A DNA stretch of 64,000 bases from a virus. The translations under genes and the position numbers were made by a program. The DNA lies in the IMG/VR virus record IMGVR_UViG_3300045240_000051, positions 4,212 to 68,211 of that record; one strand, given 5' to 3'. The notes under the pieces are model-generated. The model did no database searches. It was not told the DNA's origin and saw nothing but the letters and a program-made list of their open reading frames with translations. Shown here one piece after another: positions 33,944 through 51,801 of this stretch (position 1 is its first letter; every line of letters starts with the position of its first letter).

Positions 33944-34503
33944 GATGGGCTCGGGAGTGATTGTAACGGTCCTGGGTTGCTAGACCCTTCGGGGAGTGGT
34001 GATACCTCGATTGCCTCGCCCTCGATAGGAGTAATTGCTTTGTCGATTTTGATTTGGTCGGCCCCCAAGTTGATTGTGATTTGGACACGTTCTGTGCTCT
34101 GCTCTTTCTGTTTTTCGCCGCCGACGCCGGCCATGTCTGCCAGTACTTTAAGCGTTCCGGTTACACTTGACAAGGCTTCGTTCTTGTCGCCCATTCGCGC
34201 AACAACGTCCGGAAGGCGGTCTTCGATCCCGCATGCCGCTTGGAGGGCGATGCGCTGTTTGGTGGATTTGATGCTCTCCCATTCGGTGACGGCTATCTTG
34301 AAAGCATCTTGGAAATACTTGTTTTCTTTCAATAGGTTAAGCTGGTCTTCGGTTATTTTGTATCGGGCGCAAACAACCTTTACTGGATGCAAATTAGCTG
34401 CGAGTTCGCGGACTATGGCTGCTACGGTATTCAGGGGAATGTCTGGCATTTCCGCGGGGGGGTTTACCGCGACGGTAACAAGTTCGGTTGACGGATCAGG
34501 CAT
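33940..34503 (-). CDS. Putative terminase small subunit
   Basis: Upstream of terL; helical with a C-terminal VQITINLG strand; GGAG RBS before the ATG at 34503. Confidence 0.55.
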   Translation of the reverse strand: MPDPSTELVTVAVNPPAEMPDIPLNTVAAIVRELAANLHPVKVVCARYKITEDQLNLLKENKYFQDAFKIAVTEWESIKSTKQRIALQAACGIEDRLPDVVARMGDKNEALSSVTGTLKVLADMAGVGGEKQKEQSTERVQITINLGADQIKIDKAITPIEGEAIEVSPLPEGSSNPGPLQSLPSPS

Positions 34504-34615
34504 TTCGTAAACTCCTTCTAGTGTGCTATCATACGCTTTGCGCAAATGCAAGCGTTAGCGCCGCGTTAACGACCGTTCGATACGGTTGACGATTATGGGA
34601 TAAATCGGGTCCAGC

Positions 34616-36880
34616 ATGTCAGACATGGCCTTGGGGCAGCAAGGGGTTCTACAGGTCATACCGCCCGCTGCCCTTGAACAACAGCTTCAACAGCAGGCGT
34701 TGGATAAGGCGCAGGCCAACCAGCAGCAACAGGACCAGCAGGCCCCGCCTGACCTTGTGGGGTATATTAAAGGCCAATTCGAAATTTTCCGTAACCATCG
34801 CAATACTTCTGCCGGATGGTCAAATAGGCTTATCGACGCGCTGCGTATATTCAATGGACAGTATGACCCCAATAAATTGAATGAAATACGAAAGTTTGGC
34901 GGAAGTGAAGTGTACGCGCGTATTATAGCGCAGAAATGCCGTGCGGCCAGTTCGCTGTTACGTGACATTTATCTTGGGCAAGATCAGGCGTGGTCTATAC
35001 GGCCGCCATCCGATCCGGATGTGCCGTCAGAGATTTTGCAAAACATAGACCAGTTGATGCAGCACGAGCAGGTTATGGTGCAACAGCAGATGGGGCAGGC
35101 GCCGCACCCGTCTGACGTGGCAAATCGTAGGCGCATGCTGTTGGAGTCAGCGGAAGATGCGGCTAAAAAGAAAGCATCACAGCAGGCACGTACGTCCGAA
35201 AGTAAGATTGAGGACATGTTGCGCGAAGGAGGGTTCTATCATGCGCTTGCGGAGTTTTTGGTGGACCTACCCGTTTTTCCTTTCGCCGTTATCAAAGGTC
35301 CGGTGGTTAAAGTAATCCCGGAAGTAGTTTGGCCACCCAACGGGCAGGGCGCGCCATCCGTCAAGCAAAAGCCCAAATTGACATGGAATAGAGTGTCGCC
35401 GTTTGATTTGTGGTTTACTCCTGGTGTAGCGGATATTGAGAATGCCAATTGCATCGAAAAATTGCGAATTACCCGTGCTGAACTCAACGATATGCTTGAT
35501 TTGCCAGGGTATAACCAGGATGAAATTAGAGCCGTCCTGGAAGAATATGGGCGGGGTGGACTTTACGATAATTGGGACACCACCGACGCAGAGCGGGCTG
35601 TCCTTGAGAGCAGAGAAAATCCGGCATGGAATAGGTCCGGCTTGCTGTCAATGATGGAGTTTAACGGCAATGTACAAGGTCGGACGCTTCAAGATTATGG
35701 CATGGCCGTGGAGGATGAACTTCGAGATTATAACGTGCAGGTTTGGTGCATCGGAAGTCATATCATTAAGGCTCACCTTGCGCCGTCACCGCGCCAGAGG
35801 CACCCTTACTTCATTACGTCGTTTGAGAAGGTTCCGGGTACACCGGTTGGAAACAGCCTCTCAGACCTGCTTGGTGACATACAGGAAGTCGCTAATGCAA
35901 CACTCCGTGCGCTTGTAAACAATCTATCTATTTCGTCTGGCCCCCAAGTCGTCGTTAACGATGAACGTTTGTCGCCTGGGGAGACGGGAGAGGACCTTTA
36001 CCCATGGAAACGATGGCACGTACGCAACGATCCTGTGGCGAACAACACGCAGGAGCCGATCAAGTTTTTCATGCCGACAAGCAACTCGCAATCGCTGATG
36101 GATGTGTACAACGCATTTATTGGCATTGCGGACGATGTATCGGCGATCCCGAAATATGTTGGCGGTCAGGCAGGTGCTGGCGGCGCAGGGCGGACGGCGA
36201 GTGGATTGGCTATGTTAATGGGGAACGCCTCCAAGATATTGCAGTCGGTGAGCGCCAACATAGATCGCGACGTGCTAGAGCCCGCGCTATTGCAGTTGGC
36301 CGACCTGATTATGCTGACAGACACTTCCGGGTTATTGACGGGGGAAGAAAAGATTAGCGTGCAAGGTGTGGCGGTGGCCATCCAGCGCGAGACGTTGCGT
36401 CAACGCCAGATCGAGTTCTTGCAAGCCACGTTGAACCCGACCGACCAGAAGATCATTGGCCTTAAGGGCCGAGCTTCGCTGCTGCGGGCGGTTGGCACTA
36501 CGATTGGCCTTCCTGGGGAGGAAATTGTTCCTCCGGAACAAGTTATCGAGCAGATGGATGCTAACCAGAAGAAAGAACAGCAGCAAGGTCCGATGTTGGA
36601 GCAGGTTCAAAAGGGTGTTATGAAGGGCGTTGAACTTGGTGTGCAAACTATATCCAAGGAATTGACCGCTGGTGAAATAGCTGCTAGAGCACAGATGCCG
36701 GAAGGCAAGCCTACACACATAGGAACGCTGCCGGGTGGCTCTCAGGAGCAGGATGCGGCGCAAGGACAAGGCACAAGACAAGGCCCGCTCGTGGGTGGTG
36801 GAATGGCCCCTAATTCTGCTAACGTAGTCGGCAATCAACCAGGGCGCGGGGCGCACCCGATAAGTCCAGGCGTTGGGTAA
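34616..36880 (+). CDS. Portal protein
   Basis: 754 aa; RVSPFD, PYF..GTPVG..DIQ..N and GRTASGLAMLM portal-type motifs. Confidence 0.85.
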   Translation: MSDMALGQQGVLQVIPPAALEQQLQQQALDKAQANQQQQDQQAPPDLVGYIKGQFEIFRNHRNTSAGWSNRLIDALRIFNGQYDPNKLNEIRKFGGSEVYARIIAQKCRAASSLLRDIYLGQDQAWSIRPPSDPDVPSEILQNIDQLMQHEQVMVQQQMGQAPHPSDVANRRRMLLESAEDAAKKKASQQARTSESKIEDMLREGGFYHALAEFLVDLPVFPFAVIKGPVVKVIPEVVWPPNGQGAPSVKQKPKLTWNRVSPFDLWFTPGVADIENANCIEKLRITRAELNDMLDLPGYNQDEIRAVLEEYGRGGLYDNWDTTDAERAVLESRENPAWNRSGLLSMMEFNGNVQGRTLQDYGMAVEDELRDYNVQVWCIGSHIIKAHLAPSPRQRHPYFITSFEKVPGTPVGNSLSDLLGDIQEVANATLRALVNNLSISSGPQVVVNDERLSPGETGEDLYPWKRWHVRNDPVANNTQEPIKFFMPTSNSQSLMDVYNAFIGIADDVSAIPKYVGGQAGAGGAGRTASGLAMLMGNASKILQSVSANIDRDVLEPALLQLADLIMLTDTSGLLTGEEKISVQGVAVAIQRETLRQRQIEFLQATLNPTDQKIIGLKGRASLLRAVGTTIGLPGEEIVPPEQVIEQMDANQKKEQQQGPMLEQVQKGVMKGVELGVQTISKELTAGEIAARAQMPEGKPTHIGTLPGGSQEQDAAQGQGTRQGPLVGGGMAPNSANVVGNQPGRGAHPISPGVG

Positions 36881-37677
36881 TGATACATTTTATATCGGGT
36901 TTGCCGCGGAGCGGATCAACGTTGCTTGCGGCCATACTTCGACAAAATCCGGATTTCACCGCTAGTATAATGTCTCCGGTGGGACGTGTTTTTACGGACA
37001 CGCACGCGGCCATGAGCGTGGATAGCGAAGCGGAAATATTTCTGGACGACGATACCCGAGTGCGGATACTACGGGCATTATTCTCCGCATACTACGCCGA
37101 CAAAGGGGCGGATGTAATATTTGACAACAATCGGCGGTGGACGGCCAATGCCGATCTACTTATGACGCTGTTCCCTATGTCGCGAATTATATGTTGTGTA
37201 CGGGACCCTAAAGCTATTGTGGATAGTTTTGAACGGTTACTGCGTTCACATCCATTGGCGGTTAGCAAGATTATAGGAATGCAGTCTAACTTGAACGTAT
37301 ATTCCCGGTTTGACCACTACATGTCCGCGGAGGGTGTATTAGGCTTTGCTTATTATGCGTTGCGGGATGCTTTTTGGGGGCCGGCTAAGGATCGGCTCTT
37401 GTTCATTGAATATGACGATCTTTCGCGTTTTCCGAAGGAAGTTTTGGAGGATTTGCACAAAGTCCTCAACCTGCCTAAGTTCAAGTATGATTTTGAAAAT
37501 ATAGAACAGTTACCGTTGACAAAAGAATTCGATGCCAGAATAGGCACACCAGGGCTTCACGACTTGAAAGGTAAAGTGGTGTACGAACCACGTACGACCA
37601 TTTTGCCGCCTGATATCTATAATCGGGTGCCGGGTCCGTTCTGGCGCGTTAATAAAGAAGCAACCAAGGCACCGTAA
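36880..37677 (+). CDS. Sulfotransferase family protein
   Basis: ISGLPRSGSTLL 5'-PAPS loop, VRDP..S 3'-PAPS motif and IEYDDL..P. Confidence 0.85.
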   Translation: MIHFISGLPRSGSTLLAAILRQNPDFTASIMSPVGRVFTDTHAAMSVDSEAEIFLDDDTRVRILRALFSAYYADKGADVIFDNNRRWTANADLLMTLFPMSRIICCVRDPKAIVDSFERLLRSHPLAVSKIIGMQSNLNVYSRFDHYMSAEGVLGFAYYALRDAFWGPAKDRLLFIEYDDLSRFPKEVLEDLHKVLNLPKFKYDFENIEQLPLTKEFDARIGTPGLHDLKGKVVYEPRTTILPPDIYNRVPGPFWRVNKEATKAP

Positions 37678-37708
37678 CGTTCGATTGCCACCATTTTAAG
37701 GGCGCTCC

Positions 37709-38287
37709 ATGTCTGTTACTGGGTCATATAAATACGACCGAAATACACTAGGGAACGTTCTCGCCCAAGTGGTTACAGCCATCAACAAGGGTACAGGTGG
37801 CGGAAATACCGGTCCTACGGGGGCCACAGGTTCGGGCGTTGGCTCTACTGGCCCTGCGGGCCCTGGTGTGACAGGTCCTACTGGCGCTGTTGGTTTGGGC
37901 ACAGGTATTCAAGGGCCGCAAGGCAATTACGGTAACACGGGTAATACTGGCCCCACTGGTAATACTGGCCCTACGGGCCAGACCGGCACGGGTGGGCCGC
38001 TTGGTGCGACTGGTCCTGGTGCTGGTGTTACCGGGCCTACGGGCCCGACCGGTTCGAGCACCGGCATTGCCGGGTTCGCCGGTAATACTGGCCCCACTGG
38101 TAATACTGGCCCGACCGGCGCAACCGGTTTAACTGGTTTCAAAGGACATTGGGGCCCCACGGGTCCTACGGGTCCTACTGGACGAGCTACTACGTTGTTT
38201 GTTCCGCCCACTTCAAGTCCGGGTGTTACGGGTCAGGTGTGGAATAAGAACGGCGTTCTTACAATTTCTGCCGGTCCAGGGACGTAA
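37709..38287 (+). CDS. Collagen-like protein 1
   Basis: G-X-T repeats; C-terminal [13 protein letters not shown]. Confidence 0.9.
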
Positions 38288-38297
38288 GGAATAAGTC

Positions 38298-38891
38298 ATG
38301 GCCGCTAAATATGTAGATGGACCGCTTGTTGAGTCCCCGGATTTTGACTTTCAGCTTTTTGGCGAGCATTTGCATCGCGTTGTTGACACTTTTAACCAAG
38401 GGGGTATTGGCGGCGCCACTGGTGTTACTGGTCCTGCTGGTTTGGGCGGTGGAAACACTGGCCCTACTGGCCCTACCGGTGTAACCGGTCCTACTGGTTC
38501 TGCTGGTGGCCAACCGGGTCCGGTTGGTAATACCGGTGCGACTGGCCCTACTGGTGCGCAGGGTAATGTTGGCACTGCTGGTTTAGCCGGTCCGTTGGGT
38601 CCGACTGGTCCGACTGGTCCGACTGGCATAACCGGTGGTAACACTGGTCCTACTGGTATTACTGGATCGCCGTCTGGTAAACAGGGTCCGACGGGTCCGA
38701 CGGGTCCGACTGGCGCTACTGGTGGTGCTGGGCTTGCTGGTTCGTCTGGACCGATGGGGCCGACTGGTCCGACAGGTAACACAGGTAATACGGGTATCAA
38801 CACGTCCGTTTTCACACCGGCTACCGCTGATCCGCATGTGGTTAATCAGGTGTGGAGTAATAGCGGCGTTCTCACAATTTCGGCGGGGTAA
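38298..38891 (+). CDS. Collagen-like protein 2
   Basis: G-X-T repeats; C-terminal [13 protein letters not shown]. Confidence 0.9.
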
Positions 38892-38896
38892 GGACA

Positions 38897-39622
38897 ATGG
38901 CAACCAACATCCCGTTCCCTACTGTGGGACCAGACACCTACGACGACAACGACCTGAGTACCATTCTCACGCAGGTTACGCACGTCATTAACACTGGTAC
39001 GATTACTGGTCCGGCTGGTCCCGCGGGTCCTACCGGTCCGGTAACAAGCACTGGCCCGACTGGTACGACCGGTTTGGGAAAGCTGACCACTTTTGTGCCG
39101 ATTACTGGCGGCACTGGTATGACTGGTGTGGTTTCGTATCCGGGAGCCACTGGGCCTTGGGGGTCATACACCGGTCCTACTGGCGTTACTGGGTATACAG
39201 GCCCGGCCGGTGCGCAAGGTCCGTCTGGTCCGCAACCGGGTACAGGTAATACTGGTGCGACGGGTGGTACTGGGTATCAGGGTCCTCCGTATTTTGTTGG
39301 TCCGCAAGGTCCGACTGGCGCGACAGGTATCACAGGTCCTACTGGTGCGACAGGACCAAGTGGCCCTGCTGGTTTTGCCGGTAACACGGGTAATACTGGC
39401 CCCACAGGTCCTACTGGCGGAAGTACTACGTTCAAACCAACGATTGGTACTGGCGGGTCTGGTAATACTGGAACAACGGTTTATTGGGGTCCGCAAGGTC
39501 CAAACGGGCCTGTCCTGAATGACCAGTTTATTGCGCCGACTACCGATCCGAACGTGCGCGGTGCGGTGTGGAATAGAAGCGGGACGCTTGTGATTTCTCC
39601 GGGCGTTGTTGGCGGCGGGTAA
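38897..39622 (+). CDS. Collagen-like protein 3
   Basis: G-X-T repeats; C-terminal [13 protein letters not shown]. Confidence 0.9.
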
Positions 39623-39673
39623 TTGACATTGGAAGGCGGGTGCTGTACAAACGGGGCATAAGGGAAACATCCC

Positions 39674-41698
39674 ATGCCCCGTTTGATTTTGAACAGTATC
39701 GTGAAGAACGAGAGCGCGCGTATCGAGCGCATGCTTGAAAGTGTTGTGGCGTTTATCGACTGCGTGGTTATTGTAGATACCGGCAGTACGGACAATACGC
39801 AGGACTTGATTAAGTCCTTTTGCAATAAGCACAACCTGCCGGTCCACATCTACGAAGTTGGGTTTATAGATTTCTCGCAGGCGCGCAATAGCGCCCTGCG
39901 TAGTGCTCGTATGCACGCGAAGGCCGCGGATGATTACATCCTTCTTGTAGACGCGGATATGGAATTGAAGGTTGAAGATAAAACGTGTTTCGATAATTTA
40001 ACTGGTCAATCCTACGACATGTATCAGGTGGCCGGTACGCTGCATTACCAGAACCGCAGACTTGTTCGTGCCGGCTCTGTAGGATGGTATCGCGGTGTTA
40101 CGCATGAATATCTTGACGTGGAGAGCGCGGGGTTTATTCCGGAGGAAAAGGCGTATTTTTTTGACCACGCCGACGGCGCCAACCGCCCCAACAAGTTTAC
40201 TAGGGATATCAGCCTGCTTAAGCGGGGGTTGAAAGATGAACCCAATAACGAGAGATATTTCTACTACTTGGCGCAGTCGTATCGTGACGCTGGAAAATAC
40301 ATGGAGGCTATACGGTGGTACGATAAACGAGTTAAATTTGGCGGCTGGCCGGAAGAACAGTGGAGCGCACAGCTTCACAGTGCGGAGTGTTACAAGGCCC
40401 TTGGTAACGAGGCAGAGTTTATACGCAGATCGTTGATTGCGTATAACATGCGGCCGTCCCGTGCGGAGAGTGTATACGGGCTGGCCAACCATTTTAGGCT
40501 TAAGGGTGAGAATGCGCTGGCTTGCTTGTTTGCCGAAGAAGCCATGCGTATTCCACGTACCAAGGATGCGTTGTTTGTGAATGATTACGCCTACACTGTG
40601 GGCCCACTGGAGGAATTGTCCATATCCGGGTTCTACGTCGAAAGCAAAAAAGAGCATGCGTTTAACGTTACTAACAAGCTATCTCTTACAGCCGGCCCCT
40701 ATGCCGGGGCGAGAGAGTTAGCGCGTAACAATATGTTTTGGTACGTCTCGAAATTGTCGGAGGATTGTCCGTCGTTCAAAAGCCAGAAATTAGGGTTTAC
40801 GCCGGAAGACGGTTGGACGGCTATGAACCCCAGCATTGCTAGATTGGGCGAAGCCATGTTCTGCGTTGTGCGGACAGTTAATTACACTATGGATGACGAA
40901 GGGCGCTACTTGATAAAGGGGGTTGAGGACGACGGGAAGGTTGGTTGCAACGCTAACGCCACAAACCCTATTCACACTAGAAATTGGCTGGTGCGGATTG
41001 AGAATGATTTGAGCGCAGAAGTACGCAATGAGTTGTTACCGCCCGGTAACATGCCGGTCGGTTGGCCGCTGGTTATTGGGTTTGAAGACATGCGTTTGTT
41101 TTCATCCGACCGCTCTATGTGGACTTCCTCTACTGTGCGGCAAATTCATCAAGACGGGAACTGCGAACAGGTTCTAGCCCGTATAGACTTGAACAAGGAT
41201 GGTTATGTTGTTGGCGATGACTACAAACGAATGTTGCGCCAGCCGCGGGTTACCGAGAAGAATTGGATGCCTATTGACGGTAGCAATCCGATACGGTTCA
41301 TGTATCGTTTGGGTCATGTGGTGGATAGTGACGGTAAGGACATTGTTGTTAATAAGCCACCGGTAGACGTTGGACAGATTAGCGGCGGTTCGCAGGTAAT
41401 ACCGTGGATGGGTGGATGGCTGTGTCTTGTACACGAAGCACGCCCCTTACCGGATAAGCACTACAAGCGGTACTATTGGCATCGTTTCGCCTATCTCAAT
41501 CACGAGTTCAAACTTATCAATATAAGTCACCCGTTTGTGTTTCAGGAGAAGCAGATAGAATTTGCTGCGGGACTGTGCTGGCACCCGGACGGTAAGCGGT
41601 TTGTGATTTCGTACGGTGTGCAGGATAAAGAAGCACATATAGCGATAGTGAACGAGTCCGAAGTAGGGAAGATGCTATGGTTCGCACCAAAGTTGTGA
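39674..41698 (+). CDS. GT2 glycosyltransferase plus TPR plus five-bladed beta-propeller (GH130/GH43-like) domain
   Basis: IVKNE, VDTGSTD, DFSQARN, DADM; YYLAQSY TPRs; NPSI, EDMRLF, EKNW, IEFAAGL and SYG. Confidence 0.85.
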   Translation: MPRLILNSIVKNESARIERMLESVVAFIDCVVIVDTGSTDNTQDLIKSFCNKHNLPVHIYEVGFIDFSQARNSALRSARMHAKAADDYILLVDADMELKVEDKTCFDNLTGQSYDMYQVAGTLHYQNRRLVRAGSVGWYRGVTHEYLDVESAGFIPEEKAYFFDHADGANRPNKFTRDISLLKRGLKDEPNNERYFYYLAQSYRDAGKYMEAIRWYDKRVKFGGWPEEQWSAQLHSAECYKALGNEAEFIRRSLIAYNMRPSRAESVYGLANHFRLKGENALACLFAEEAMRIPRTKDALFVNDYAYTVGPLEELSISGFYVESKKEHAFNVTNKLSLTAGPYAGARELARNNMFWYVSKLSEDCPSFKSQKLGFTPEDGWTAMNPSIARLGEAMFCVVRTVNYTMDDEGRYLIKGVEDDGKVGCNANATNPIHTRNWLVRIENDLSAEVRNELLPPGNMPVGWPLVIGFEDMRLFSSDRSMWTSSTVRQIHQDGNCEQVLARIDLNKDGYVVGDDYKRMLRQPRVTEKNWMPIDGSNPIRFMYRLGHVVDSDGKDIVVNKPPVDVGQISGGSQVIPWMGGWLCLVHEARPLPDKHYKRYYWHRFAYLNHEFKLINISHPFVFQEKQIEFAAGLCWHPDGKRFVISYGVQDKEAHIAIVNESEVGKMLWFAPKL

Positions 41699-42375
41699 CA
41701 GGTTTCGTGCCGATACCAAGGCACCCGCGTACAGCCGAAGAATACGGTAAACTGGGGGAACACTTCAAAGAGTTGATGACTCCCGTTCATCCGTTCTACG
41801 AGGGCATCGAAGATTGCTGGCTTACTCGATATTTGCGGAAGCACAAGATACATCCTAATCATTCCGAAGGGGACAACCCCCAAAAGAACACGTTGGCATA
41901 CCACATAGTGCAGCACCAGAAGTTTGAATGGCTATGCAAGGCTGCTATGTACGACCGCGGGCCTGATGTTTTTATTTGGATGGATTACGGTATATGGCAC
42001 GTACCTGGAGTTACTTCGAAGGTGGTTCGTGAATTCCTTGCCAGCGTGAAGCCGTTTGATTTAGCTATTCCGGGGTGTTGGAAGTCAGGTGATCCGCGTA
42101 TAGAGTCGGTTGGTAACGACTGGCCTAACTGGCGGTTTTGTGGCGGTCTTATGGTGGTGCCTAGGAACCAGCTTATACCGCTTTATAAACGGGTGCGGCA
42201 GGCTGTGGCAATAAAGCTTTCGCTGGAGCACCATATAACCTGGGAAGTGAATACACTTGCCGATGTGGAGCAATTCCTGCCGATACGTTGGTATGAAGCG
42301 GACCATAACGAAACAATGTTCACGGAGTACGAACATGGTGCAGACGTTTCGAGAGTTCCAATCCTCACGGCTTGA
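41677..42375 (+). CDS. HtrL/WlaTC-like glycosyltransferase
   Basis: VVTGF, K..W, FIWMDYG, WRFCGG and WY.ADH motifs. Confidence 0.65.
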   Translation: MVRTKVVTGFVPIPRHPRTAEEYGKLGEHFKELMTPVHPFYEGIEDCWLTRYLRKHKIHPNHSEGDNPQKNTLAYHIVQHQKFEWLCKAAMYDRGPDVFIWMDYGIWHVPGVTSKVVREFLASVKPFDLAIPGCWKSGDPRIESVGNDWPNWRFCGGLMVVPRNQLIPLYKRVRQAVAIKLSLEHHITWEVNTLADVEQFLPIRWYEADHNETMFTEYEHGADVSRVPILTA

Positions 42376-42880
42376 GGAAGTTTGTTGTACTCCCCGTTGT
42401 CCTGGTGACACACTTAGCGAGGCCGATTATTGCGTAGGTCTCGTAGAGTTGATAAACTTGGTACGACCAAGATCAGTTATAGAGATTGGTTCATGGAAAG
42501 GTGTATCCACGGAAGCGTTCTTGTTGACCGTCCCGCTTGTTTTAGCAGTTGATCCTTGGGACTATCCGGATGGTATTTTTGAGGAATTTATGGAGCGGTG
42601 TGGTGCGTATCCTGGATTGGGAGTGCGTCGTGGGAAAAGTCCGGAAGCTTTGGAGGGTTTTAACAATCGTTTTGAAATGTGTTACATAGACGCCGAGCAC
42701 ACATATGACGCCGTGCGGGCTGATATTCTTGCGGCTAGCAAAATAGTGAAAGACGACGGGTGGATAGCCGGCCACGATTTCCAAATGCCGCAGGTGGAGA
42801 AGGCGGTATTATCCAGAGTAAAGGCGCCTATACTTTTTAGGGATGGGTCTTGGTTGGTCAAAAACAGGATAATGGAATAG
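42335..42880 (+). CDS. Class I SAM methyltransferase (Methyltransf_24-like)
   Basis: IEIGSWKGVS, VDPW, YIDAEHTY and GWIAGHDF. Confidence 0.85.
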   Translation: MVQTFREFQSSRLEEVCCTPRCPGDTLSEADYCVGLVELINLVRPRSVIEIGSWKGVSTEAFLLTVPLVLAVDPWDYPDGIFEEFMERCGAYPGLGVRRGKSPEALEGFNNRFEMCYIDAEHTYDAVRADILAASKIVKDDGWIAGHDFQMPQVEKAVLSRVKAPILFRDGSWLVKNRIME

Positions 42881-42881
42881 C

Positions 42882-43076
42882 ATGTTGTCCAAGGTACACG
42901 TCAAGTTTGGTGATAATAACTTGTCTTATAACGAGCAATGCAAGTTGCTGTTCGAATTTGAGAAATTTGCCCGTGTCCTATATCCTGATAAAGGGGTGGA
43001 AATTTTCATGGATCGTATGGGGGATGATAGTAAGCTTAGGGTCAAAATGACACCTGAACAAAGGAATACGCTGTAG
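42882..43076 (+). CDS. Small hypothetical protein
   Basis: 64-aa ORF translationally coupled within the operon. Confidence 0.55.
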   Translation: MLSKVHVKFGDNNLSYNEQCKLLFEFEKFARVLYPDKGVEIFMDRMGDDSKLRVKMTPEQRNTL

Positions 43077-44191
43077 TGACTGTTATATCGCCGTATGATC
43101 TTGAGTTAGACGGCACCAAGGTTGGTTGGTGGAAAGATCGCGTGGAAGCATGGGAGCGCGGCGAGAAGTTTGCTCCTATTACAATGGATGTAGCCTGGAC
43201 CCGCCAGTGCAATGCTGCGTGCGTGTTTTGTTATGCCACGTTACAAGCTAGTCAAGGGGGCAAGATTGAGAAGAAGCACGCGTTTGATTTCTTGGATGAT
43301 TGTGCCGAAATTGGTGTGCGGGGTGTGTCGCTTATCAGCGATGGCGAGAGCACTATTGTCCCATGGTTTGCCGACAGCATAGAGCATATGGGGTTGCTTG
43401 GACTGAAAGCGGGTTGTAGTACTAACGGTGTACGGTTGAAGCGTCCGTTGCTGGAACGTATCCTCCCCCATATGACCTACTTGCGGTTTAATTTTAGTGC
43501 CGCGGATCAACCGCGGTATTCTGCGATCATGGGGTTGCAGAAGCGAGACTACGAACAGGTGCTGCAAAACGTTAAAGACGCTATGGAGATAAAGCGGCGC
43601 GACAAGCTGCCGGTTACGATAAACATACAAATGGTCACCATGCCATCGTCGTTCGATCAAATTTTGCCGTTGGCGCGATTGTGCAGAGACGTATTGCGCC
43701 CGGATTATTTGATCTATAAGCATTGCTCAAGTGATAGCGAGAACCAGCTAGGTATTGACTATTCTGAATATTCCAAGTGCCATGATGATTTGCGCCGGGC
43801 AGAGGCTATGGGCGACGATGAATTTCGTGTTGCCGTTAAGTGGTCCAAGATAGAGAACGAGGGTAAGCGGGAATATTCAAAGTGTTTCGGGGCACCGTTC
43901 ATCTTACAAATGAGCGGTAATGGTCTGATTGCCCCCTGCGGTATGCTGTTCAACAGAGAGTATGCTAAATTTCACATCGGCAACATTATAAATGAGCGTT
44001 GGCGGGATATATTCAATTCTGATCGCTACTGGGAAGTTATTCGGTATCTGGCTAGTGACCAGTTTAACCCACAGAAGCGGTGCGGTGCCAACTGTTTGCA
44101 GCATCATACCAATGACTGGCTTTACAAGTTTAACCAGGGGCGCGTGCAGCTTCCGTCTTCTTCCATGCCAACCCACCCGGAGTTCATTTAA
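43076..44191 (+). CDS. Radical SAM enzyme with SPASM/twitch domain
   Basis: CNAACVFC, DGE, TNG; C-terminal C..G.I.PC..IGNI..CxxxC. Confidence 0.88.
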   Translation: MTVISPYDLELDGTKVGWWKDRVEAWERGEKFAPITMDVAWTRQCNAACVFCYATLQASQGGKIEKKHAFDFLDDCAEIGVRGVSLISDGESTIVPWFADSIEHMGLLGLKAGCSTNGVRLKRPLLERILPHMTYLRFNFSAADQPRYSAIMGLQKRDYEQVLQNVKDAMEIKRRDKLPVTINIQMVTMPSSFDQILPLARLCRDVLRPDYLIYKHCSSDSENQLGIDYSEYSKCHDDLRRAEAMGDDEFRVAVKWSKIENEGKREYSKCFGAPFILQMSGNGLIAPCGMLFNREYAKFHIGNIINERWRDIFNSDRYWEVIRYLASDQFNPQKRCGANCLQHHTNDWLYKFNQGRVQLPSSSMPTHPEFI

Positions 44192-44850
44192 TGTGGTTTA
44201 TGCCAACATACGGCCGTCCGCACCACCTGGAGCAGTTGGAGGCTTCCCCTGGCGGTATGCCGCCTTACGACGATTTTGTACTTCTGCTTACCGAGTCTGA
44301 TCCTAAGTTGGTGGGGTATGACAAATGGCCGTACCGAAAAATGATACGGCCTGCGCGTTCGCTTGGGGACCAACTCAGGTATATATTACCGTGTTTCCCT
44401 AGAGAACGTAGCTACGGTATTTTGACAGACGATCATTACCCGCAGACCAAATACTGGTGGAATTTTATGGAAACGGCCGCTGGGGACCGGTTGCTTGCTA
44501 TTGCTACGGCACCGGGGAGTACTGCGTCGTTGCCAGGAGAACCGTGTTTTGGTGGTGGCCTTGTGCGGGCTATGGGCAGCATAATGCCGCCGAAAGATGT
44601 GCATCACAACTCCACCGATGTTGTATGGAGAGAAATTGGGGATGCGTTTAAGTTGATTACGGTTGTTCCGGAAGCTGTTATTTTGGAAAAGCACCCTATA
44701 CACGGCACCGCGGAAATGGACGATACTTACAAGCGGGGGGCGTTTAACCCGATGTTTAAGGACAATGATCCGGCCAACCACCACAAGTGGTCTGTCAGTA
44801 AGGCCCATGACGATATGTATACACGAATTAAAGTGTTTCTCGAAAATTAA
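44191..44850 (+). CDS. Putative GT-A fold glycosyltransferase
   Basis: MPTYGRP, LTDD and H..D..H pattern. Confidence 0.55.
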   Translation: MWFMPTYGRPHHLEQLEASPGGMPPYDDFVLLLTESDPKLVGYDKWPYRKMIRPARSLGDQLRYILPCFPRERSYGILTDDHYPQTKYWWNFMETAAGDRLLAIATAPGSTASLPGEPCFGGGLVRAMGSIMPPKDVHHNSTDVVWREIGDAFKLITVVPEAVILEKHPIHGTAEMDDTYKRGAFNPMFKDNDPANHHKWSVSKAHDDMYTRIKVFLEN

Positions 44851-44917
44851 CAGGTTATCTACTTTTGCCGGGTTAGATGGCCCCAAGGGTTTAGCTAGCC
44901 CTACAGGAGATTTTCCA

Positions 44918-45868
44918 ATGGCCAGTGGCGCAAAAAGTGGTTCCAAAGATACCGGTAGCGTTGCCGATCTAAAGGGCAGCGGTAAAGTTGACCGGCACGA
45001 AAAAACGCATAACGTAGAATTTGCCAAGGGCGGCAACACCAAGATGTTTGGCGAGCAAGCGGCCGGTGAACAGAAGCCGGAACACACCGGTAAGCAGCCT
45101 ACGTCGGCTCCCGGTGCGGAGTTCGCCAAGGGCGGCAGTGGTAAGATGTTTGGCTTTACCGCGGCCCAGCCGGCCCAGTCGGGCATTACGAGTGCTCGAT
45201 AATGGCCATCAAGGTCACAGGCGGTAAGGTTAAATCTGCGGGTGCTCCGGAAGGTAGAGAGTTTGCTTTGGGCACACGACCACCCAATTTGCGTGACTTT
45301 CCGATCCAGCGCACCATGCCTGTGAACAGCGGGGCTGGTACACGCAATTATGGTAAGGCCCAGCAAGGCCCACGTCAGCCGGCGTTTGGCGGCGGGTTTG
45401 GCACTACAGGCCAGATTGGAAGCTAACCATGGTTTTCAAGAAAGATATTAAGCCGTTTTCCAAAGGCGGGGCAATTACCAAGCACCAGGGTAAGGGCTCG
45501 CAGATGGCTGCTATGCCAAATCGGAATACCTTGTCTGCGCTGCAACAGCCAGCAGGTCAGTCGATCAACAACTACGCAAAAGCCACCCCCATGGCTAACC
45601 CGACTGCCGGTGCTCCGGACGGTTTGGGTAGTGGGAGTTGGGCTGGAAACGGACAATAATGGCCCTTCCGCCTTCTCTTAAAGACACAATAGAGCGTTTG
45701 AAGAATAACGCTGGCGAGGCGTACGATATTTTTGTTAACGCATTTGAAACCCATACCGCCGAAGTTACCGCCACGGTAATAATAGCCTCTCCTTCCGATG
45801 TGCAGAATAAGCAAGGACAGGCCCAAGAAGCGACTAAGTTGTTGAGGATGTTCAAAGAAGCCAAGTAA
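44918..45868 (+). other. Four small head-region ORFs (44918-45202, 45202-45426, 45429-45659, 45659-45868)
   Basis: Coupled G/K-rich ORFs, two with FAKGG/FSKGG motifs. Confidence 0.7.
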
Positions 45869-45907: not shown

Positions 45908-46972
45908 ATGGCAGCGCCCCTTCCGCCTGTGGATACTAGTGTTTCACTCCCCCCGTCTGTGCTTAGAGCCGCGGAAGTAGCCAATGCAGCCCATGCGCAA
46001 GCGTACGGAGCCCCCGAACCGCAACCAGCAGCTACTGAACCAGCGCCAGCTAATGCAGGGTCACCTGACCCCGCCGCCCCGGCTACAGAGCCAGTCCAGC
46101 CACAACCCGTTGCCCAGCTCGCCGCTACACAACCCCAGTCAGAACCACAGCACCAGGAGCCCGTAGAGCCTGCGGAATGGGAGCATCGCTATCAGTCCAT
46201 GAAGGGGCGCTTCGATCAATCGCAGCGCACTGTTGGATCGTTGCAGCAACAGCTTTCGGAGTTGGGAGACGAGCTTATTCGAACCCAGCAGTTAATAACG
46301 CAGCCCCGCCAACAGCAGCAACCGAATACACCGCCGCAGCCGGTTAGGGTATTGACAGACGAAGATCGTGCCAATTATGGTCCGGAGTTGCTGGATGTTA
46401 TCCAGCGTGCTGCACGTGAAGCTATAGAGCCTGAAATCAATCAGGTTAGGCAGCAAAATCGTAATATAGCTCAAAGGGTTGCAACACAAACGCAGCAAGG
46501 TGTTTACCAGACCCTTAGCGCCGAAATACCTAATTGGAACGAGATAAATAACAGTCCACGATTCAAGGCGTGGTGCCGTTTACCAGACCTTTACTCAGGG
46601 GTGGTACGTGGTAAGTTGTTAATGGACGCCTTCCAAGCCGCTAATGCGCCTCGGGTAGTCGCGTTCTTTAGGGGCTTCCTCGCAGAGGAAGTAGCCACGG
46701 GCCAGCAACCAGACCCGTCGGGCCAGCAGCAGCAAGAACCCGCTCCTGCACGGCAACCGGCGATCCCCCTGGAAACTCTTGCGGCTCCTGGTAGGGCGAA
46801 GCCGGCGACTGGGAACACTCCTGCGCCCGCGGATAAGCCGATTTACACACGCGCTCAAGTTGCCGGGTTTTACGATGACGTACGCAAAGGTGTGTACGCT
46901 GGTCGTGACGAAGACAAAAAGCGCGACGAGGCATTGATTTTCGCGGCCCAACGTGAGGGTCGCATTCGATAA
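45908..46972 (+). CDS. Capsid scaffolding protein
   Basis: P/Q/A-rich N-terminus, coiled coil and AQREGRI C-terminus; directly upstream of the major capsid gene. Confidence 0.75.
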   Translation: MAAPLPPVDTSVSLPPSVLRAAEVANAAHAQAYGAPEPQPAATEPAPANAGSPDPAAPATEPVQPQPVAQLAATQPQSEPQHQEPVEPAEWEHRYQSMKGRFDQSQRTVGSLQQQLSELGDELIRTQQLITQPRQQQQPNTPPQPVRVLTDEDRANYGPELLDVIQRAAREAIEPEINQVRQQNRNIAQRVATQTQQGVYQTLSAEIPNWNEINNSPRFKAWCRLPDLYSGVVRGKLLMDAFQAANAPRVVAFFRGFLAEEVATGQQPDPSGQQQQEPAPARQPAIPLETLAAPGRAKPATGNTPAPADKPIYTRAQVAGFYDDVRKGVYAGRDEDKKRDEALIFAAQREGRIR

Positions 46973-50139: not shown

Positions 50140-50454
50140 ATGGTTGCTTATCCGGCTGGTCCAACTCCTGTATTCACGCGCCCTATTGTTATAGCAACAG
50201 GGTTCACCGGCCCTACTGGCCCTGGTGTTGGGTCTACCGGTCCTTCTGGAGCAACAGGCCCTACGTCGGCTACTGGCCCCATTGGCCAAACTGGGCCCAC
50301 TGGCGCTAACTTTTCCAGTTCGTTTTTGGCTGCGGGTGCGGGTGGCGCCACGCCGGTACTGTCTGTTGGTCCGACTGGTGTGCATTCCGCTGTGCAGGCT
50401 TGGTTGTCTATTACTGGCCCTGCGGGTACGCAAGTGTATATCCCTTGTTACTAA
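50140..50454 (+). CDS. Short collagen-like protein
   Basis: GPT repeats; YIPCY C-terminus. Confidence 0.8.
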   Translation: MVAYPAGPTPVFTRPIVIATGFTGPTGPGVGSTGPSGATGPTSATGPIGQTGPTGANFSSSFLAAGAGGATPVLSVGPTGVHSAVQAWLSITGPAGTQVYIPCY

Positions 50455-50463
50455 GGTGCCTAA

Positions 50464-51801
50464 ATGCGTTTTGAAGTTGCCGACGAAGAAAGAGTTCTCG
50501 GGCGTCTAAATCAGGTTGTTGGCGACAGCCTACAGCATGAGATTGATTATTCGGAGTGGTTGCAGAAGGGCGAAGTACTTAGCGCGGTATTTTTAACAGT
50601 TGATGCTGGCACGGCGACTGTTAGCAACCAGACTTATTTTCTAAACCAGAAAGCTGTTAGGTTTTTTCTTAACGGCGGGACACTTGGCGATCAGTTCAAT
50701 ATTATAGTGTTTGCCACCACGTCGTTTGGCCAAAGCCGGTATGATAGTATTCATGTTGGTGTTGAAACGAATGGTGGTGCCGTTGTTTTGTCTTCTAACC
50801 AGCAGCTTATGTTGTCAATACAGGGGAATACGGGGCCCACTGGTATCGGTCCTACTGGTCCGTCGGGTGGTCCTACTGGTGCAACTGGTTCGTCTGTTAC
50901 TGGTCCTACTGGCACGACCGGTAACACCGGTTCTACTGGGTGCACAGGAAACACTGGCCCTACTGGTGCGCAGGGCATACAGGGTATTCAAGGCGTAACT
51001 GGCCCCACGGGTAACACAGGAAACACTGGCCCTACTGGTGCGCAGGGCATACAGGGTATTCAAGGCGTAACTGGTTCTACGGGGAACACCGGTAATACCG
51101 GTCCCACTGGGAGCATCGGTAACGCGGGCCCGACCGGTGCACAGGGCGTAACTGGCCCCACCGGTAACACCGGTCCCACTAGTAATACTGGTCCTACCGG
51201 TGCACAGGGCGCAGCGAGCACAGTTACTGGCCCCACTGGTAACACCGGTAACACCGGCCCTACTGGTGCGCAAGGTAACGCTGGGGCAGCGAGCACGGTT
51301 ACTGGTCCTACCGGGTATACTGGAAATACGGGGAATACTGGCGCTGCTGGTCCTGCTGCCAATACCGGTGCAACAGGTCCGACAGGACCAATCGGCAATA
51401 CAGGTAACACTGGTAACACTGGTAACACTGGCCCAACCGGGTTAAATAATAGCGGTACAGGGTGGGTTCCTACAGATCAAAGTGGGGCGGGTTTATCATT
51501 TACAAATGCTACTGGTACATATTCCCAAATTGGTAATTGGGTTTTTGTGGCAGGCGCGCTAACTTATCCTTCTACTGTTGACACCAGCGCGTCTAAAATA
51601 TCGTTACCTGTTGCGGTGCCTAATACTTTATACGCTGCTGTCCCAGGGGTTTCTACTAATGCTTCTTCTGGCAGTGAAATAAGGGCGGTTCAAAATTCTT
51701 CCACCGCGGCGTTTGTGCTTATTGCTAGTGGCGCTGCGCTTACCAATGCTAATCTTACTAGCAGAGCAATAGAGTTTGCGTTGGCGTTTCCAGTGAGTTA
51801 A
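50464..51801 (+). CDS. Collagen-like tail fibre
   Basis: N-terminal adaptor domain, long G-X-T stalk and a C-terminal fibre tip ([12 protein letters not shown]). Confidence 0.85.

Follow-up and report, generated by a model that had tools for sequence, protein, structure and literature searches.

Why would a podophage carry a run of sugar-modifying enzymes and collagen-like proteins among the genes for its particle? The record (IMG/VR IMGVR_UViG_3300045240_000051) is a complete genome of 68,211 bp from an uncultured podophage, and the window analysed here is a stretch of 64,000 nucleotides of it (positions 4,212 to 68,211), to which all coordinates refer. The island in question spans 36880-44850 and holds 11 close-packed genes, all on the + strand, with the portal gene to its left and the scaffold and capsid genes to its right. 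The portal gene (34616..36880, +) matches PF23899 (3.4e-9), phrog_332 (5.9e-59) and phrog_1216 (3.6e-9), and its homologue in Rhizobium phage RHph_TM3_14A carries a portal annotation, in agreement with PF23899 and phrog_1216. The gene at the right boundary (45908..46972, +), preceded by small ORFs at 45202-45659, matches phrog_13678 (2.7e-40), a family with no named function; its name of presumed scaffold is therefore positional, and it sits between portal and capsid in all relatives as well. The first-pass annotation of this DNA had described a co-oriented, largely translationally coupled block between portal and scaffold. The block is present, with intergenic spacing of -41 to +51 nt across 11 consecutive genes from the portal to p11; the portal flank is confirmed by family matches and the scaffold flank is given by position. 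ORF calls and family scans recovered every gene that the annotation had named, all on the + strand, along with a 64-aa ORF at 42882-43076 that it had overlooked. Only one strong terminator-like hairpin was found in 34000-48200, at 48047-48075, directly 3' of the capsid gene. The co-orientation of the genes and the lack of a strong terminator before the post-capsid one indicate that the island is part of the late structural (portal-to-capsid) operon.

One gene of the island (39674-41698, +) encodes an enzyme of 674 aa with three domains, in keeping with the GT2-TPR-propeller architecture proposed earlier. The GT2 (GT-A) catalytic domain (residues 1 to ~170; 39674..40183, +) matches PF00535 at 2.1e-11, with 44.5 bits against a cut-off of 23.3, and its D93-A-D95 (DxD) motif is invariant in 22 homologues. 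It is followed by a TPR-like helical repeat domain (residues ~174-357; 40193..40744, +), for which the TPR matches in Pfam are sub-threshold and the AF2 model shows helical repeats over residues 174-357 (pLDDT 88.9). Sequence matches of the enzyme in the PDB were GmaR (2.3e-10), SunS (3.4e-9) and also ThuS; the SunS family of NCBIfam was matched at 7.6e-10, below the family cut-off, and Foldseek aligned the GT2 and TPR half to SunS/ThuS with an E value of 3e-14. By sequence and fold, the enzyme belongs with the protein and peptide glycosyltransferases. The remaining part (residues ~360-670; 40751..41683, +) is modelled as a five-bladed propeller, with Foldseek matches to the mannoside synthase Uhgb_MS (3.7e-10), beta-1,2-mannobiose phosphorylases (~1e-9) and Leishmania MPT-2 (1.8e-8). 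An invariant E-D-x-R aligns with the GVEDPR/GIEDCR of GH130, at a profile-to-PDB E value of 0.22 that is not significant. Going by its modelled fold, the C-terminal half resembles a GH130/GT108 beta-mannoside propeller. GDP-mannose serves as mannose donor both for GT108 enzymes and for the beta-1,2-specific GH130 enzymes, Uhgb_MS among them (PMC12814180). In the 50 phage records that matched, coverage of the three-domain enzyme was below 80% throughout.

Then, what might such an enzyme act upon? The island encodes three Thr-rich collagen-like paralogues, as had been noted, of 192 aa (37709..38287, +; PF01391), 197 aa (38298..38891, +; PF01391, 2.1e-12) and 241 aa (38897..39622, +; PF01391, 5.2e-10), with 41, 43 and 45 G-x-y triplets, respectively, and Thr at Y in 24, 23 and 23 of them. 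An alignment of 19 paralogues and orthologues showed a conserved N-terminal Y-D helix motif, in which Tyr followed by Asp is nearly invariant (with acidic neighbours in the third collagen), and a conserved C-terminal motif of ~27 aa. The three further collagen genes reported at 50140-53677 are also real, and the Gp77 fibre-tail adaptor domain (PF23148) at the N-terminus of two of them identifies these two as tail fibres. The first is a short ORF of 104 aa (50140..50454, +) with 11 triplets, 7 of them G-x-T, and a PF01391 match below cut-off (0.0039). The second (50464..51801, +) joins a Gp77-like adaptor (PF23148, 5.4e-11) to a G-x-T collagen stalk (PF01391, 1e-21) of 62 triplets, 42 of them G-x-T, and is likely the main substrate of glycosylation. 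The third (51803..53677, +) has the same adaptor (3.9e-10) and a collagen stalk (PF01391, 1.8e-12) of 50 triplets, including 26 G-x-T, and ends in a non-collagen domain of ~300 aa.

The relation between enzyme and collagens was examined in 80 loci anchored on the major capsid protein (MCP), 30 of which contain both portal and scaffold. The enzyme is present in 17 of these 30, where the slot measures 4.6-8.6 kb, small collagens occur in 16/17 and downstream collagen fibres in all 15 scoreable loci. It is absent from the other 13, whose slot measures 0.6-2.6 kb; here small collagens were seen in 0/13 and collagen fibres in 0/9 scoreable loci. Across the clade, 25 loci have both the enzyme and collagen-stalked tail fibres, 10 have neither and 0 are discordant. 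The co-occurrence that the first-pass annotation had asked about is thus perfect in the clade, where one change on the MCP tree accounts for it, so that it counts as one evolutionary event. In relatives that lack the enzyme, the Gp77-like adaptor persists as an ORF of its own (~100 aa), and in the cassette-less isolate RHph_TM3_14A no collagen gene was found anywhere in the genome. The collagen proteins common to every scoreable enzyme-bearing relative are the tail fibres, and four relatives (L029, L031, L035 and L175) retain the enzyme without the small collagens; the collagen "coat" envisaged at first is not supported by this distribution.

Independently of the clade event, neighbourhood analysis indicates that the linkage between enzyme and collagen genes recurs in phages, giant viruses and bacteria. 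A collagen ORF lies within 2.5 kb of the enzyme gene in 21 of 68 giant-virus and jumbo-phage loci, and none is near in 47. Counted by collagen ORF, 25/33 are near as against 30% expected, near-duplicate loci included, and 2165 of the 2910 collagen triplets are G-x-T. Proteins that consist of the propeller only have a collagen ORF within 2.5 kb in 14/19 loci. For bacteria, with one genome per species and collagen ORFs of at least 20 triplets, the homologue is near a collagen ORF in 40 of 76 loci, not all of them independent, and has none near in 36. The pairings span Mesorhizobium, Streptomyces, Bacillus, Chlamydiae, Myxococcota and Acidobacteria; in Mesorhizobium genomes the same three-domain enzyme adjoins bacterial collagen genes (1044 and 1108 aa). 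Near-duplicates among the loci make the p-values calculated from these viral and bacterial counts smaller than they should be. Since 47/68 viral and 36/76 bacterial loci have no collagen ORF nearby, collagens may not be the target of every member of the family.

Several other enzymes of the island could extend or decorate a glycan. The sulfotransferase (Sulfotransfer_3; 36880..37677, +) matches PF13469 at 6e-18, with 66.3 bits against a cut-off of 27, and phrog_27463 at 3e-40; this gene, named at first sight, recurs at the same place in three relatives (L125, L129, L131) and beside the glycosyltransferase in L031. No APS kinase gene was found in the phage, so sulfation would rely on host PAPS. 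The product of p7 (41677..42375, +) is a divergent HtrL_YibB-like protein and a presumed glycosyltransferase. It has no direct Pfam match and does not reach the HtrL model, and the likeness claimed for it holds through its homologues, 7 of 18 of which passed the PF09612 cut-off (the window's own p7 being the 19th protein), and through its ESM Atlas neighbour cluster (score 0.96), 50% of whose members bear HtrL_YibB. In 27 of the loci examined there is a p7 homologue that is 180 aa or longer, and the mapped ones are directly 3' of the glycosyltransferase. We know of no tested function for the HtrL family. The SAM methyltransferase (Methyltransf_24; 42335..42880, +; best start ATG 42335) was confirmed by PF13578 (2.9e-14; 54.2 bits, cut-off 26.3), has weak PDB matches to O-methyltransferases (5.7e-3) and falls in a family labelled "DNA methyltransferase" in PHROG. 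For p11 (44191..44850, +), the gene is real and has a 57% homologue at the same place in L119; its identity as a glycosyltransferase comes from the label of phrog_14945 (6.5e-12), with no match in Pfam, NCBIfam or the PDB. In relatives, three-domain enzyme, HtrL-like protein, small G-X-T collagens and methyltransferase make up a conserved core; after it comes a slot that is hypervariable and holds nucleotide-sugar and glycan-tailoring genes. Among 67 of 85 candidate slot ORFs scanned in 25 relatives, an NDP-sugar epimerase/dehydratase was found in 9 loci, UDP-galactopyranose mutase in 1, sugar C-methyltransferases in 2 and DUF4422 in 3, along with many methyltransferases; those at the same slot are non-orthologous.

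The radical SAM/SPASM gene (43076..44191, +) proved correctly named, with PF04055 (42.5 bits, cut-off 29.5) and, in its SPASM/twitch-like C-terminal part, PF13186 (25.2 bits, cut-off 21.5) both above threshold, the C45/C49/C52 cysteines and four invariant C-terminal Cys. In structural comparisons of its model (pLDDT 78.9), VIA Z scores were 22.7 for DesII, 21.6 for BlsE, 21.3 for SkfB, 20.6 for PqqE and 19.7 for SuiB; the sugar-acting DesII and BlsE are the closest folds, and the peptide maturase SkfB ties within ~1 Z. Its presumed partner by conserved adjacency is the overlooked 64-aa p9 (42882..43076, +), which has no family or ESM Atlas match and the lowest GC of the block (0.405). A p9 lies upstream of the radical SAM homologue in 11/11 other phage loci (L107-L117), none of which has a match (E 1e-5) to the window's collagens, glycosyltransferase, portal or capsid protein. 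The pair occurs in 0/80 MCP-anchored relatives and, this genome excepted, shares no contig with the enzyme family among the best 120 matches. As judged by this distribution, radical SAM and p9 form a two-gene unit that was acquired, within the clade, by this genome only. Elsewhere the unit is found in heptose-type sugar clusters: in the four other phage loci examined the radical SAM gene lies among sugar-pathway genes (4/4), with a PfkB-type kinase (4/4, a fused HldE-like one in 3), SIS (3), a TPP enzyme or split transketolase-like pair (4/4), a methyltransferase (2) and a phrog_14945 glycosyltransferase (2). Modelled fold and context in other phages favour a sugar substrate.

On balance, we think it probable that this block, embedded in the late structural operon, is an island for the glycosylation of virion proteins. 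Most likely it would modify the phage's own collagen-like fibres with a tailored glycan, and glycosylation of virion fibres is well supported by comparison. The three-domain enzyme would recognise the collagen-like proteins, probably via its TPR domain; both tail fibres with an adaptor (50464-53677) and all three small collagens (37709-39622) would be substrates. The GT2 domain of the enzyme would put the first sugar on Thr at Y of the G-x-T repeats, much as SgtA does on BclA3, and the GH130/GT108-like domain would lengthen or remodel the chain. The sugar used in this second step would most likely be beta-linked mannose, with GDP-mannose or mannose-1-phosphate as donor. The HtrL-like p7 and GT-like p11 may append more sugars, the methyltransferase may methylate the fibre glycan, the sulfotransferase may add sulfate from host PAPS, and the radical SAM enzyme, together with the 64-aa p9, may tailor a sugar or nucleotide sugar. 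We infer the substrate, the sugars and the order of steps, and likewise that the sulfate and the radical SAM product end on the fibre glycan. Downstream of p7 the slot appears exchangeable and its genes vary from relative to relative, so related phages could carry different glycans on the same fibres. The glycosylated and methylated collagens of the first-pass annotation are supported by comparison, the former through the glycosyltransferase family, the SgtA domain plan and adjacency and the G-X-T collagen linkage, the latter through non-orthologous methyltransferases that recur at the same slot.

A possible but doubtful alternative is that the core (collagens, three-domain enzyme, p7 and methyltransferase) acts on fibres while the radical SAM/p9 unit, and perhaps p11, is an independent passenger, whose product, a modified sugar or small molecule, serves some other end, or which matures a peptide. 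Its conservation in 11 unrelated phage loci without the window's collagens or glycosyltransferase, its absence from the relatives and from enzyme-family contigs among the best 120 matches, the GC of p9 and the near-DesII scores of the peptide-acting SkfB, PqqE and SuiB are consistent with this. However, the unit is inserted exactly in the glycan-tailoring slot, is translationally coupled to the methyltransferase and p11, and sits in other phages with nucleotide-sugar genes and a glycosyltransferase of p11's PHROG; there is no RRE-like N-terminal domain, the radical SAM core begins at ~residue 40, and a Cys-rich core was not seen in p9.

Remodelling of the host envelope during infection (LPS, EPS or host collagen-like surface proteins), for superinfection exclusion or to prevent progeny from adhering to debris, with the collagen genes merely nearby, appears unlikely. 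HtrL_YibB is familiar from LPS-core gene clusters, the sulfotransferase has a weak likeness to the Nod-factor enzyme NoeE (1.6e-9, far under the NoeE cut-off), and the Mesorhizobium enzyme beside host collagen genes means that the phage copy could act on host fibres. Phage glycosyltransferases are also commonly so interpreted, as in PMC7029224. Yet the GT2-TPR half falls among the transferases for proteins and peptides and not among polysaccharide synthases, the adjacency is also seen in contigs of giant viruses, whose hosts have no LPS, the genes are embedded in the portal-to-capsid operon, and in the clade the fibres of the phage itself have collagen stalks where the enzyme is present. Less likely still is sulfation of a collagen tyrosine instead of a sugar, for which the nearly invariant Y-D motif of the small collagens would be the candidate site. 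The best solved relatives of the sulfotransferase are the human protein-tyrosine enzymes TPST2 and TPST1 (E 2e-3 to 1e-2), but the match is limited to the PAPS-binding N-terminal half (residues 3-117), the motif is equally conserved in relatives without a sulfotransferase, and the L031 sulfotransferase adjoins the enzyme with no small collagen there. It is very improbable that the enzymes hypermodify the DNA of the phage through sugar transfer, methylation and radical SAM chemistry, even though glycosyltransferase, methyltransferase and radical SAM genes occur in phage DNA-hypermodification clusters (bioRxiv 10.1101/2023.12.21.572611) and PHROG labels the methyltransferase family as it does. 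A PHROG scan of the 54 other window ORFs found no hydroxymethylase, TET-like protein or transglycosylase; the relatives of the three-domain enzyme act on peptides, and DNA modification would give no reason for a linkage to collagen genes that spans three domains of hosts.

How does fibre glycosylation by this island compare with known systems? The radical SAM enzyme resembles DesII (Z 22.7 over 341 residues) and BlsE (Z 21.6 over 298), which act on TDP-sugar or nucleoside-sugar substrates, at an identity of 11-12% and in the tie with SkfB; to our knowledge, neither has a conserved 64-aa partner protein. The propeller resembles those of GH130 phosphorylases and GT108 enzymes (Uhgb_MS, Teth514_1788, MPT-2; Foldseek E 4e-10 to 2e-8, TM by target 0.5-0.68, with the sequence similarity not significant); unlike them, it comes as the C-terminal fusion partner of a GT2-TPR protein. 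SunS/ThuS (glycocin S-glycosyltransferases) and Listeria GmaR (a flagellin O-GlcNAc transferase) share GT2 plus helical repeats and a protein or peptide acceptor. Of the solved structures they come closest to residues 1 to ~340 by sequence and fold, at just 16-22% identity; their acceptors are glycocin Cys or flagellin Ser/Thr, and none has a propeller. In mycobacteriophages, phage-encoded glycosyltransferases and an O-methyltransferase modify virion proteins (Freeman et al. 2023, cited in PMC11600133), although the targets as cited are capsid and tail-tube proteins without collagen repeats, and the enzyme families and host phylum differ. Giant viruses likewise encode both collagen-like proteins and the enzymes that glycosylate them (PMC9614988); Mimivirus L230 hydroxylates Lys and adds glucose on collagen, a chemistry and enzyme family different from those of the phage enzyme. 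In that review TPR, GH130 and sulfotransferase have 0 occurrences each, so the three-domain enzyme of giant-virus contigs appears undescribed there. The SgtA-BclA3 pair belongs to the spore exosporium of Clostridioides difficile, a spore coat, whereas here the setting is a phage virion operon known from its genes alone, and SgtA (358 aa) has no third domain where the phage enzyme has its fused propeller. As described in PMC7157674, SgtA consists of a GT-A domain and four TPRs, is encoded beside bclA3 and adds beta-O-GlcNAc in vitro onto Thr of GPT collagen peptides. By that domain plan and gene adjacency the phage enzyme is likened to SgtA: an N-terminal GT-A/GT2 domain, then TPRs, beside a gene for a G-x-T collagen, the Thr of whose triplets would be the acceptor.

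The record is 68,211 bp long and 100% complete by CheckV, and the window covers its bases 4212-68211. PHROG and Pfam scans describe a podophage-type genome with its replication genes on the minus strand, and placed the terminase at 31277-32746, the portal at 34616-36880, the presumed scaffold at 45908-46972, the major capsid protein (MCP) at 47012-48022, adaptor-bearing tail fibres at 50464-53677 and the endolysin at 54098-54595. Eleven co-oriented genes run from the portal through p11 before the scaffold, with junctions of -41 to +51 nt. After the portal, the order is a sulfotransferase, three small collagens (37709-38287, 38298-38891 and 38897-39622), a 674-aa glycosyltransferase (39674-41698), the HtrL-like p7 (41677-42375), a methyltransferase, the 64-aa p9 (42882-43076), a radical SAM/SPASM gene (43076-44191) and the GT-like p11 (44191-44850). 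The sole strong terminator-like hairpin within 34000-48200 lies 3' of the capsid gene; it is the only element used from a promoter and terminator scan whose counts were not above those of shuffles. The co-orientation, the tight junctions and the hairpin found only after the capsid gene confirm the enzyme and collagen block that the first-pass annotation had described between portal and scaffold. The genes it named are all present; p9 had been overlooked. The 20-kb region gave no megablast match against phages. HNH/endonuclease VII-type genes lie directly after the capsid gene (48034-48600) and near the lysis genes (55864-56319). A single ORF of ~1,790 codons stretches from within the first kilobase of the record (L281:729 in our locus numbering) into the window, to 1899, and its window part had no PHROG match. 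A nucleoside 2-deoxyribosyltransferase-like gene among the replication genes (12312-12833, minus strand; phrog_12607, 8.5e-13) is the window's sole hint of unusual nucleotide metabolism.

The 674-aa glycosyltransferase is a three-domain enzyme. Its AlphaFold model, with 22 homologues, had a pLDDT of 88.9 and resolved all three domains. PF00535 (GT2, GT-A fold) matched residues 10-101 with 44.5 bits against a cut-off of 23.3. D93-A94-D95 is invariant in 22/22 aligned homologues, and from its position we take it to be the DxD metal/nucleotide-sugar motif. Residues 1 to ~340 comprise the GT2 domain and helical repeats, with helices at 174-357 in the model, and Pfam TPR models scored below cut-off. 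Foldseek aligned 283-381 columns of this half with the glycocin S-glycosyltransferases SunS and ThuS (E 3e-14), and the best sequence matches were Listeria GmaR (2.3e-10) and SunS (3.4e-9). Residues ~360-670 form a five-bladed beta-propeller of GH130/GT108-like fold (Foldseek probability 1.00), with E values of 3.7e-10 for the mannoside synthase Uhgb_MS, ~1e-9 for mannobiose phosphorylases and 1.8e-8 for the Leishmania GT108 mannosyltransferase MPT-2. E471-D472-x-R474 is invariant in 15/15 sequences and lines up with the GVEDPR/GIEDCR of GH130, though the profile-to-PDB match was not significant (E 0.22). Beta-1,2-specific GH130 and GT108 enzymes are able to use GDP-mannose as mannose donor (PMC12814180). 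The search with the enzyme returned 1257 homologues, among them two at 80% and 69% on contigs of 68,046 and 68,186 bp; in the cultured-phage collection, 0/50 matching records covered at least 80% of it. The combination of GT2-TPR with a GH130/GT108-like domain is a previously undescribed fusion enzyme with an unexpectedly wide distribution.

The enzyme gene is directly downstream of the small collagen genes, an arrangement in which a GT2-TPR gene stands beside the gene for its putative protein substrate. PF01391 was above its cut-off of 27.2 bits, at 35.8-76.9 bits, for the genes at 37709, 38298, 38897, 50464 and 51803. Three further collagen fibre genes had been proposed at 50140-53677, and PF01391 bears this out for those at 50464 and 51803; the ORF at 50140-50454 stayed below the cut-off at 17.4 bits. 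All 19 aligned small collagens have in common an N-terminal Y-D...VLKQVVDxIN segment and a C-terminal motif of ~27 residues with the consensus PPTSDPxVxGxVWNxxGVLTxSxG (in the window, the C-termini are at 38180-38284, 38790-38888 and 39500-39619). To us the latter is reminiscent of a foldon-like trimerisation hairpin. At the C-terminal end of the second tail fibre lies a domain of ~300 aa that is not collagen (52800-53677) and had no Pfam match at E 0.01; it is presumably the receptor-binding or depolymerase part.

Identification of p7 as an HtrL-like glycosyltransferase stood only in part. The protein had no match to PF09612 (HtrL_YibB) even at E 0.1, yet 7/18 scanned homologues linked to it by phmmer pass the PF09612 cut-off and its ESM Atlas neighbour cluster carries HtrL_YibB on 50% of members. 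From these comparisons p7 appears to be a divergent HtrL_YibB relative rather than a demonstrated member. Homologues of p7 directly follow the enzyme in phage loci and in several giant-virus loci. The next position is filled in relatives by non-orthologous methyltransferases (Methyltransf_24, _31, _11 and _3). p11 had no relevant phmmer match in the PDB; a 57% homologue sits at the same place in one relative (L119), beside a different O-methyltransferase.

To see the block in its clade, IMG/VR was scanned with the MCP, which gave at least 506 relatives. The best 80 loci were analysed, and 30 of these hold both portal and scaffold. Where the enzyme is present (17 loci), the slot, that is, the portal-to-scaffold interval, measures 4.6-8.6 kb, small collagens occur in 16/17 and downstream collagen-stalked fibre ORFs in 15/15 scoreable loci. 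Where it is absent (13 loci), the slot measures 0.6-2.6 kb, small collagens occur in 0/13 and collagen-stalked fibre ORFs in 0/9 scoreable loci. In the enzyme-less relatives the Gp77-like adaptor either stands alone, as an ORF of ~100 aa, or is fused to a non-collagen protein. The nearest isolate, Rhizobium phage RHph_TM3_14A (capsid identity 65%), has the portal, three small ORFs and then the scaffold, with no collagen-like gene in its whole genome. Co-occurrence of enzymes and collagens had been suggested as a check on the first-pass reading, and on the capsid-protein tree it held throughout: among 35 scoreable rows, 25 had both traits, 10 had neither and 0 were discordant. The trait changed once, on a branch with support of 99/98. 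The association of enzyme and collagen fibres within the clade is perfect, yet it represents a single event.

Beyond the methyltransferase position, the slot content of the relatives is hypervariable. In a survey of 25 relatives, 67/85 candidate ORFs were scanned, the 18 shortest or overlapping ones being dropped. NDP-sugar epimerase/dehydratases (GDP-mannose-dehydratase-like) were found in nine loci, DUF4422 in three, sugar C-methyltransferases in two and UDP-galactopyranose mutase in one, along with a short-chain dehydrogenase, a P4H-type 2OG oxygenase, many methyltransferases and endonuclease VII inserts. Such content is the signature of a glycan-building, glycan-diversifying locus. The P4H-type 2OG-Fe(II) oxygenase, in the slot of one relative (L140:5659-6336; PF13640, 1.4e-13), could be a prolyl or lysyl hydroxylase acting on collagen stalks. 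Endonuclease_7 ORFs lie within the slot of five relatives (L129, L132, L148, L153 and L166), so homing endonucleases may help shuffle it.

The linkage of enzyme and collagen extends outside the clade. The full three-domain enzyme is found on many giant-virus and jumbo-phage contigs, and its neighbours in BFVD are Pithovirus-like, Harvfovirus and Indivirus proteins, all uncharacterised. To call collagen ORFs, a simple rule for G-x-y runs was applied to stop-to-stop frames. A collagen ORF lies within 2.5 kb in 21/68 giant-virus and jumbo-phage loci at a threshold of 10 or more triplets, and in 17/68 at 20 or more; 47 of the 68 have no collagen gene within 2.5 kb of the enzyme gene. Of the collagen ORFs in these 68 loci, 25/33 are near the enzyme, against 30% expected from flank lengths. 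The triplets in these viral collagens are G-x-T in 2165/2910 cases, and single ORFs reach 555/575 and 152/162. Loci of propeller-only proteins have a nearby collagen ORF in 14/19 cases, usually with a p7 homologue too. In bacteria, sampled at one genome per species, 567 relatives of the enzyme were found. Of the 76 best loci, 40 carry a collagen ORF with 20 or more triplets within 2.5 kb, at least 50% G-x-T in 35 of the 40, and 36 have no collagen gene within that distance. Near-duplicates occur among the viral and bacterial loci, so that binomial statistics overstate the significance. The collagen-linked loci span Mesorhizobium, Streptomyces, Bacillus, Chlamydiae, Myxococcota, Acidobacteria and others. 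Two Mesorhizobium loci, L205:1151-8043 (43% identity) and L209:1509-9750 (42%), encode the full three-domain enzyme; in both, its gene is divergent from a collagen gene, of 1108 aa in the first (212/218 triplets G-x-T) and 1044 aa in the second (187/199). These copies hint that the host belongs to the Rhizobiales and that it has similar fibres itself. The cultured Tunturiibacter phage Tunturi_5 (L120:7001-14897) has a GT2-TPR gene, gp35, with 40% identity to enzyme residues 1-317. It is 3.7 kb from the tail fibre gene gp29 (85 collagen triplets, 54 of them G-x-T), and four paralogous genes of ~285 aa lie between the two.

The radical SAM protein matched PF04055 with 42.5 bits against 29.5 and PF13186 (SPASM) with 25.2 against 21.5. 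C45, C49 and C52 of the CX3CX2C motif are invariant in its homologues. The full SPASM motif, as we understand it, has seven Cys for two auxiliary clusters; here only four C-terminal Cys (270, 288, 336 and 340) are invariant in 12 sequences, which would fit one auxiliary cluster. The model (pLDDT 78.9) was closest in fold to DesII (Z 22.7, 341 residues aligned) and BlsE (21.6), tied with SkfB (21.3) and PqqE (20.6), with SuiB within 1-3 Z and BtrN at 14.9. No NCBIfam equivalog came near its cut-off. PADLOC returned nothing beyond a generic viperin-type match to the radical SAM core, and a defence role was rejected. Its 64-aa partner p9 matched nothing in Pfam, PHROGs or NCBIfam, and its ESM Atlas structural neighbours were below the naming bar with no usable feature match.

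Whether this unit belongs to the block functionally is one of several points on which other readings were weighed. Radical SAM and p9 genes are paired in 11/11 other IMG/VR loci (L107-L117, 56-67% identity), and at a threshold of E 1e-5 none of these loci matched the collagens, enzyme, portal or capsid protein of the window. None of the best 80 of at least 506 capsid-anchored relatives carries the unit, and the top-120 lists for the radical SAM protein and the enzyme apparently have no contig in common besides this genome. Because it is paired in unrelated phage loci and absent from the 80 relatives and the listed enzyme-bearing contigs, the unit is a recent acquisition into the tailoring slot. 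Such a newcomer could be an unrelated passenger, a reading to be set beside the company that the unit keeps elsewhere. The four unit loci examined all lie among sugar-pathway genes, with a PfkB-type kinase in 4/4 (fused HldE-like in three), a TPP-dependent enzyme or split transketolase-like pair in 4/4, SIS (GmhA-like) in three, Methyltransf_11 in two and a GT of the PHROG of p11 (phrog_14945) in two. This cluster resembles a modified-heptose or branched-sugar pathway, and context and fold favour a sugar as the putative substrate of the radical SAM enzyme. The phages bearing the unit are unrelated to the clade and ~50-70 kb in size (clusters, for example, at L113:6608-14383 and L109:6973-12945).

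The sulfotransferase assignment was borne out by PF13469 (Sulfotransfer_3; 66.3 bits against 27). Its 5'-PSB and 3'-PB loops for PAPS binding are presumably P-R-S-G-S-T (residues 9-14) and R-D-P (108-110). Tyrosine is one possible acceptor: the solved relatives are tyrosylprotein sulfotransferases, but the match is confined to residues 3-117, the PAPS-binding half (E 2e-3). Homologues occupy the same position in three relatives (L125, L129 and L131) and lie next to the enzyme in another locus (L031). The top-120 homologue lists for sulfotransferase and enzyme apparently have 18 contigs in common, and this indirect overlap suggests that the sulfotransferase is a frequent member of the island. 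A single-protein IMG/VR scan gave one weak, unrelated locus, the homologues coming from MCP-anchored loci and protein search. No APS kinase gene was found in the phage. The enzymes might also modify phage DNA. The PHROG-level scan of the window showed neither an integrase nor a DNA-hypermodification enzyme, and the DNA reading was rejected because the companion enzymes were not found. Remodelling of the host envelope is a further rival for a set of glycan enzymes, to be judged against their pairing with the phage's own collagen-stalked fibres.

On the best-supported reading, the gene block is an island for virion glycosylation, in which the GT2-TPR half of the enzyme would prime Thr in the G-x-T stalks of the phage's own fibres; the propeller, p7 and p11 would lengthen the glycan; and the methyltransferase, the sulfotransferase and the radical SAM unit would tailor it. 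A fuller proposal is more tentative, and we rate it at somewhat less than an even chance. It holds that the fibres and small collagens of this uncultured clade bear an O-linked, beta-mannoside-containing glycan whose composition is set by a swap-in/swap-out slot, an O-antigen-like locus for the virion, and that the glycan is here sulfated, methylated and radical-SAM-tailored. The underlying module (G-x-T collagen, GT2-TPR enzyme with or without the GH130-like domain, and HtrL-like protein) would be an ancient and mobile glycosylated-fibre system common to bacteria, phages and giant viruses. The clade offers a large set for testing, with a dedicated hypervariable glycan island in the head-gene operon that tracks collagen-stalked fibres, and Tunturi_5 could serve as a cultured test of the core idea. 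Because enzyme and collagen are linked across bacteria, phages and giant viruses, many microbial 'collagen-like' proteins and uncharacterised glycosyltransferases of giant viruses gain a function that can be tested. Should the glycans prove real, they would matter for the stability of the fibres, for host recognition and for how antigenic phage particles are, and the slot would amount to a natural toolbox of enzymes that tailor sugars.

Protein O-glycosylation of collagen-like repeats and virion glycosylation are already known in kind. To our knowledge, experiments have shown phage enzymes to glycosylate phage particles in just a few actinophages, and a GT2-TPR enzyme to glycosylate collagen in just one case, a clostridial spore protein. 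Our search of the openly available literature found nothing on O-glycosylated collagen-like phage tail fibres or on phage-encoded sulfation of virion glycans. The small collagens of the window are like the BclA stalk in working but are not members of the BclA family, which we take to carry a C-terminal globular domain of ~130 aa behind the collagen region; the small collagens stop ~30 residues past the last triplet. A 2022 review of giant-virus glycans leaves TPR, GH130 and sulfotransferase unmentioned (PMC9614988). C. difficile SgtA consists of a GT-A domain and four TPRs, is encoded next to bclA3, and in vitro transfers beta-O-GlcNAc onto Thr of G-P-T collagen peptides (PMC7157674). With this architecture and an adjacent collagen gene, SgtA is the closest functional analogue of the N-terminal half of the three-domain enzyme.
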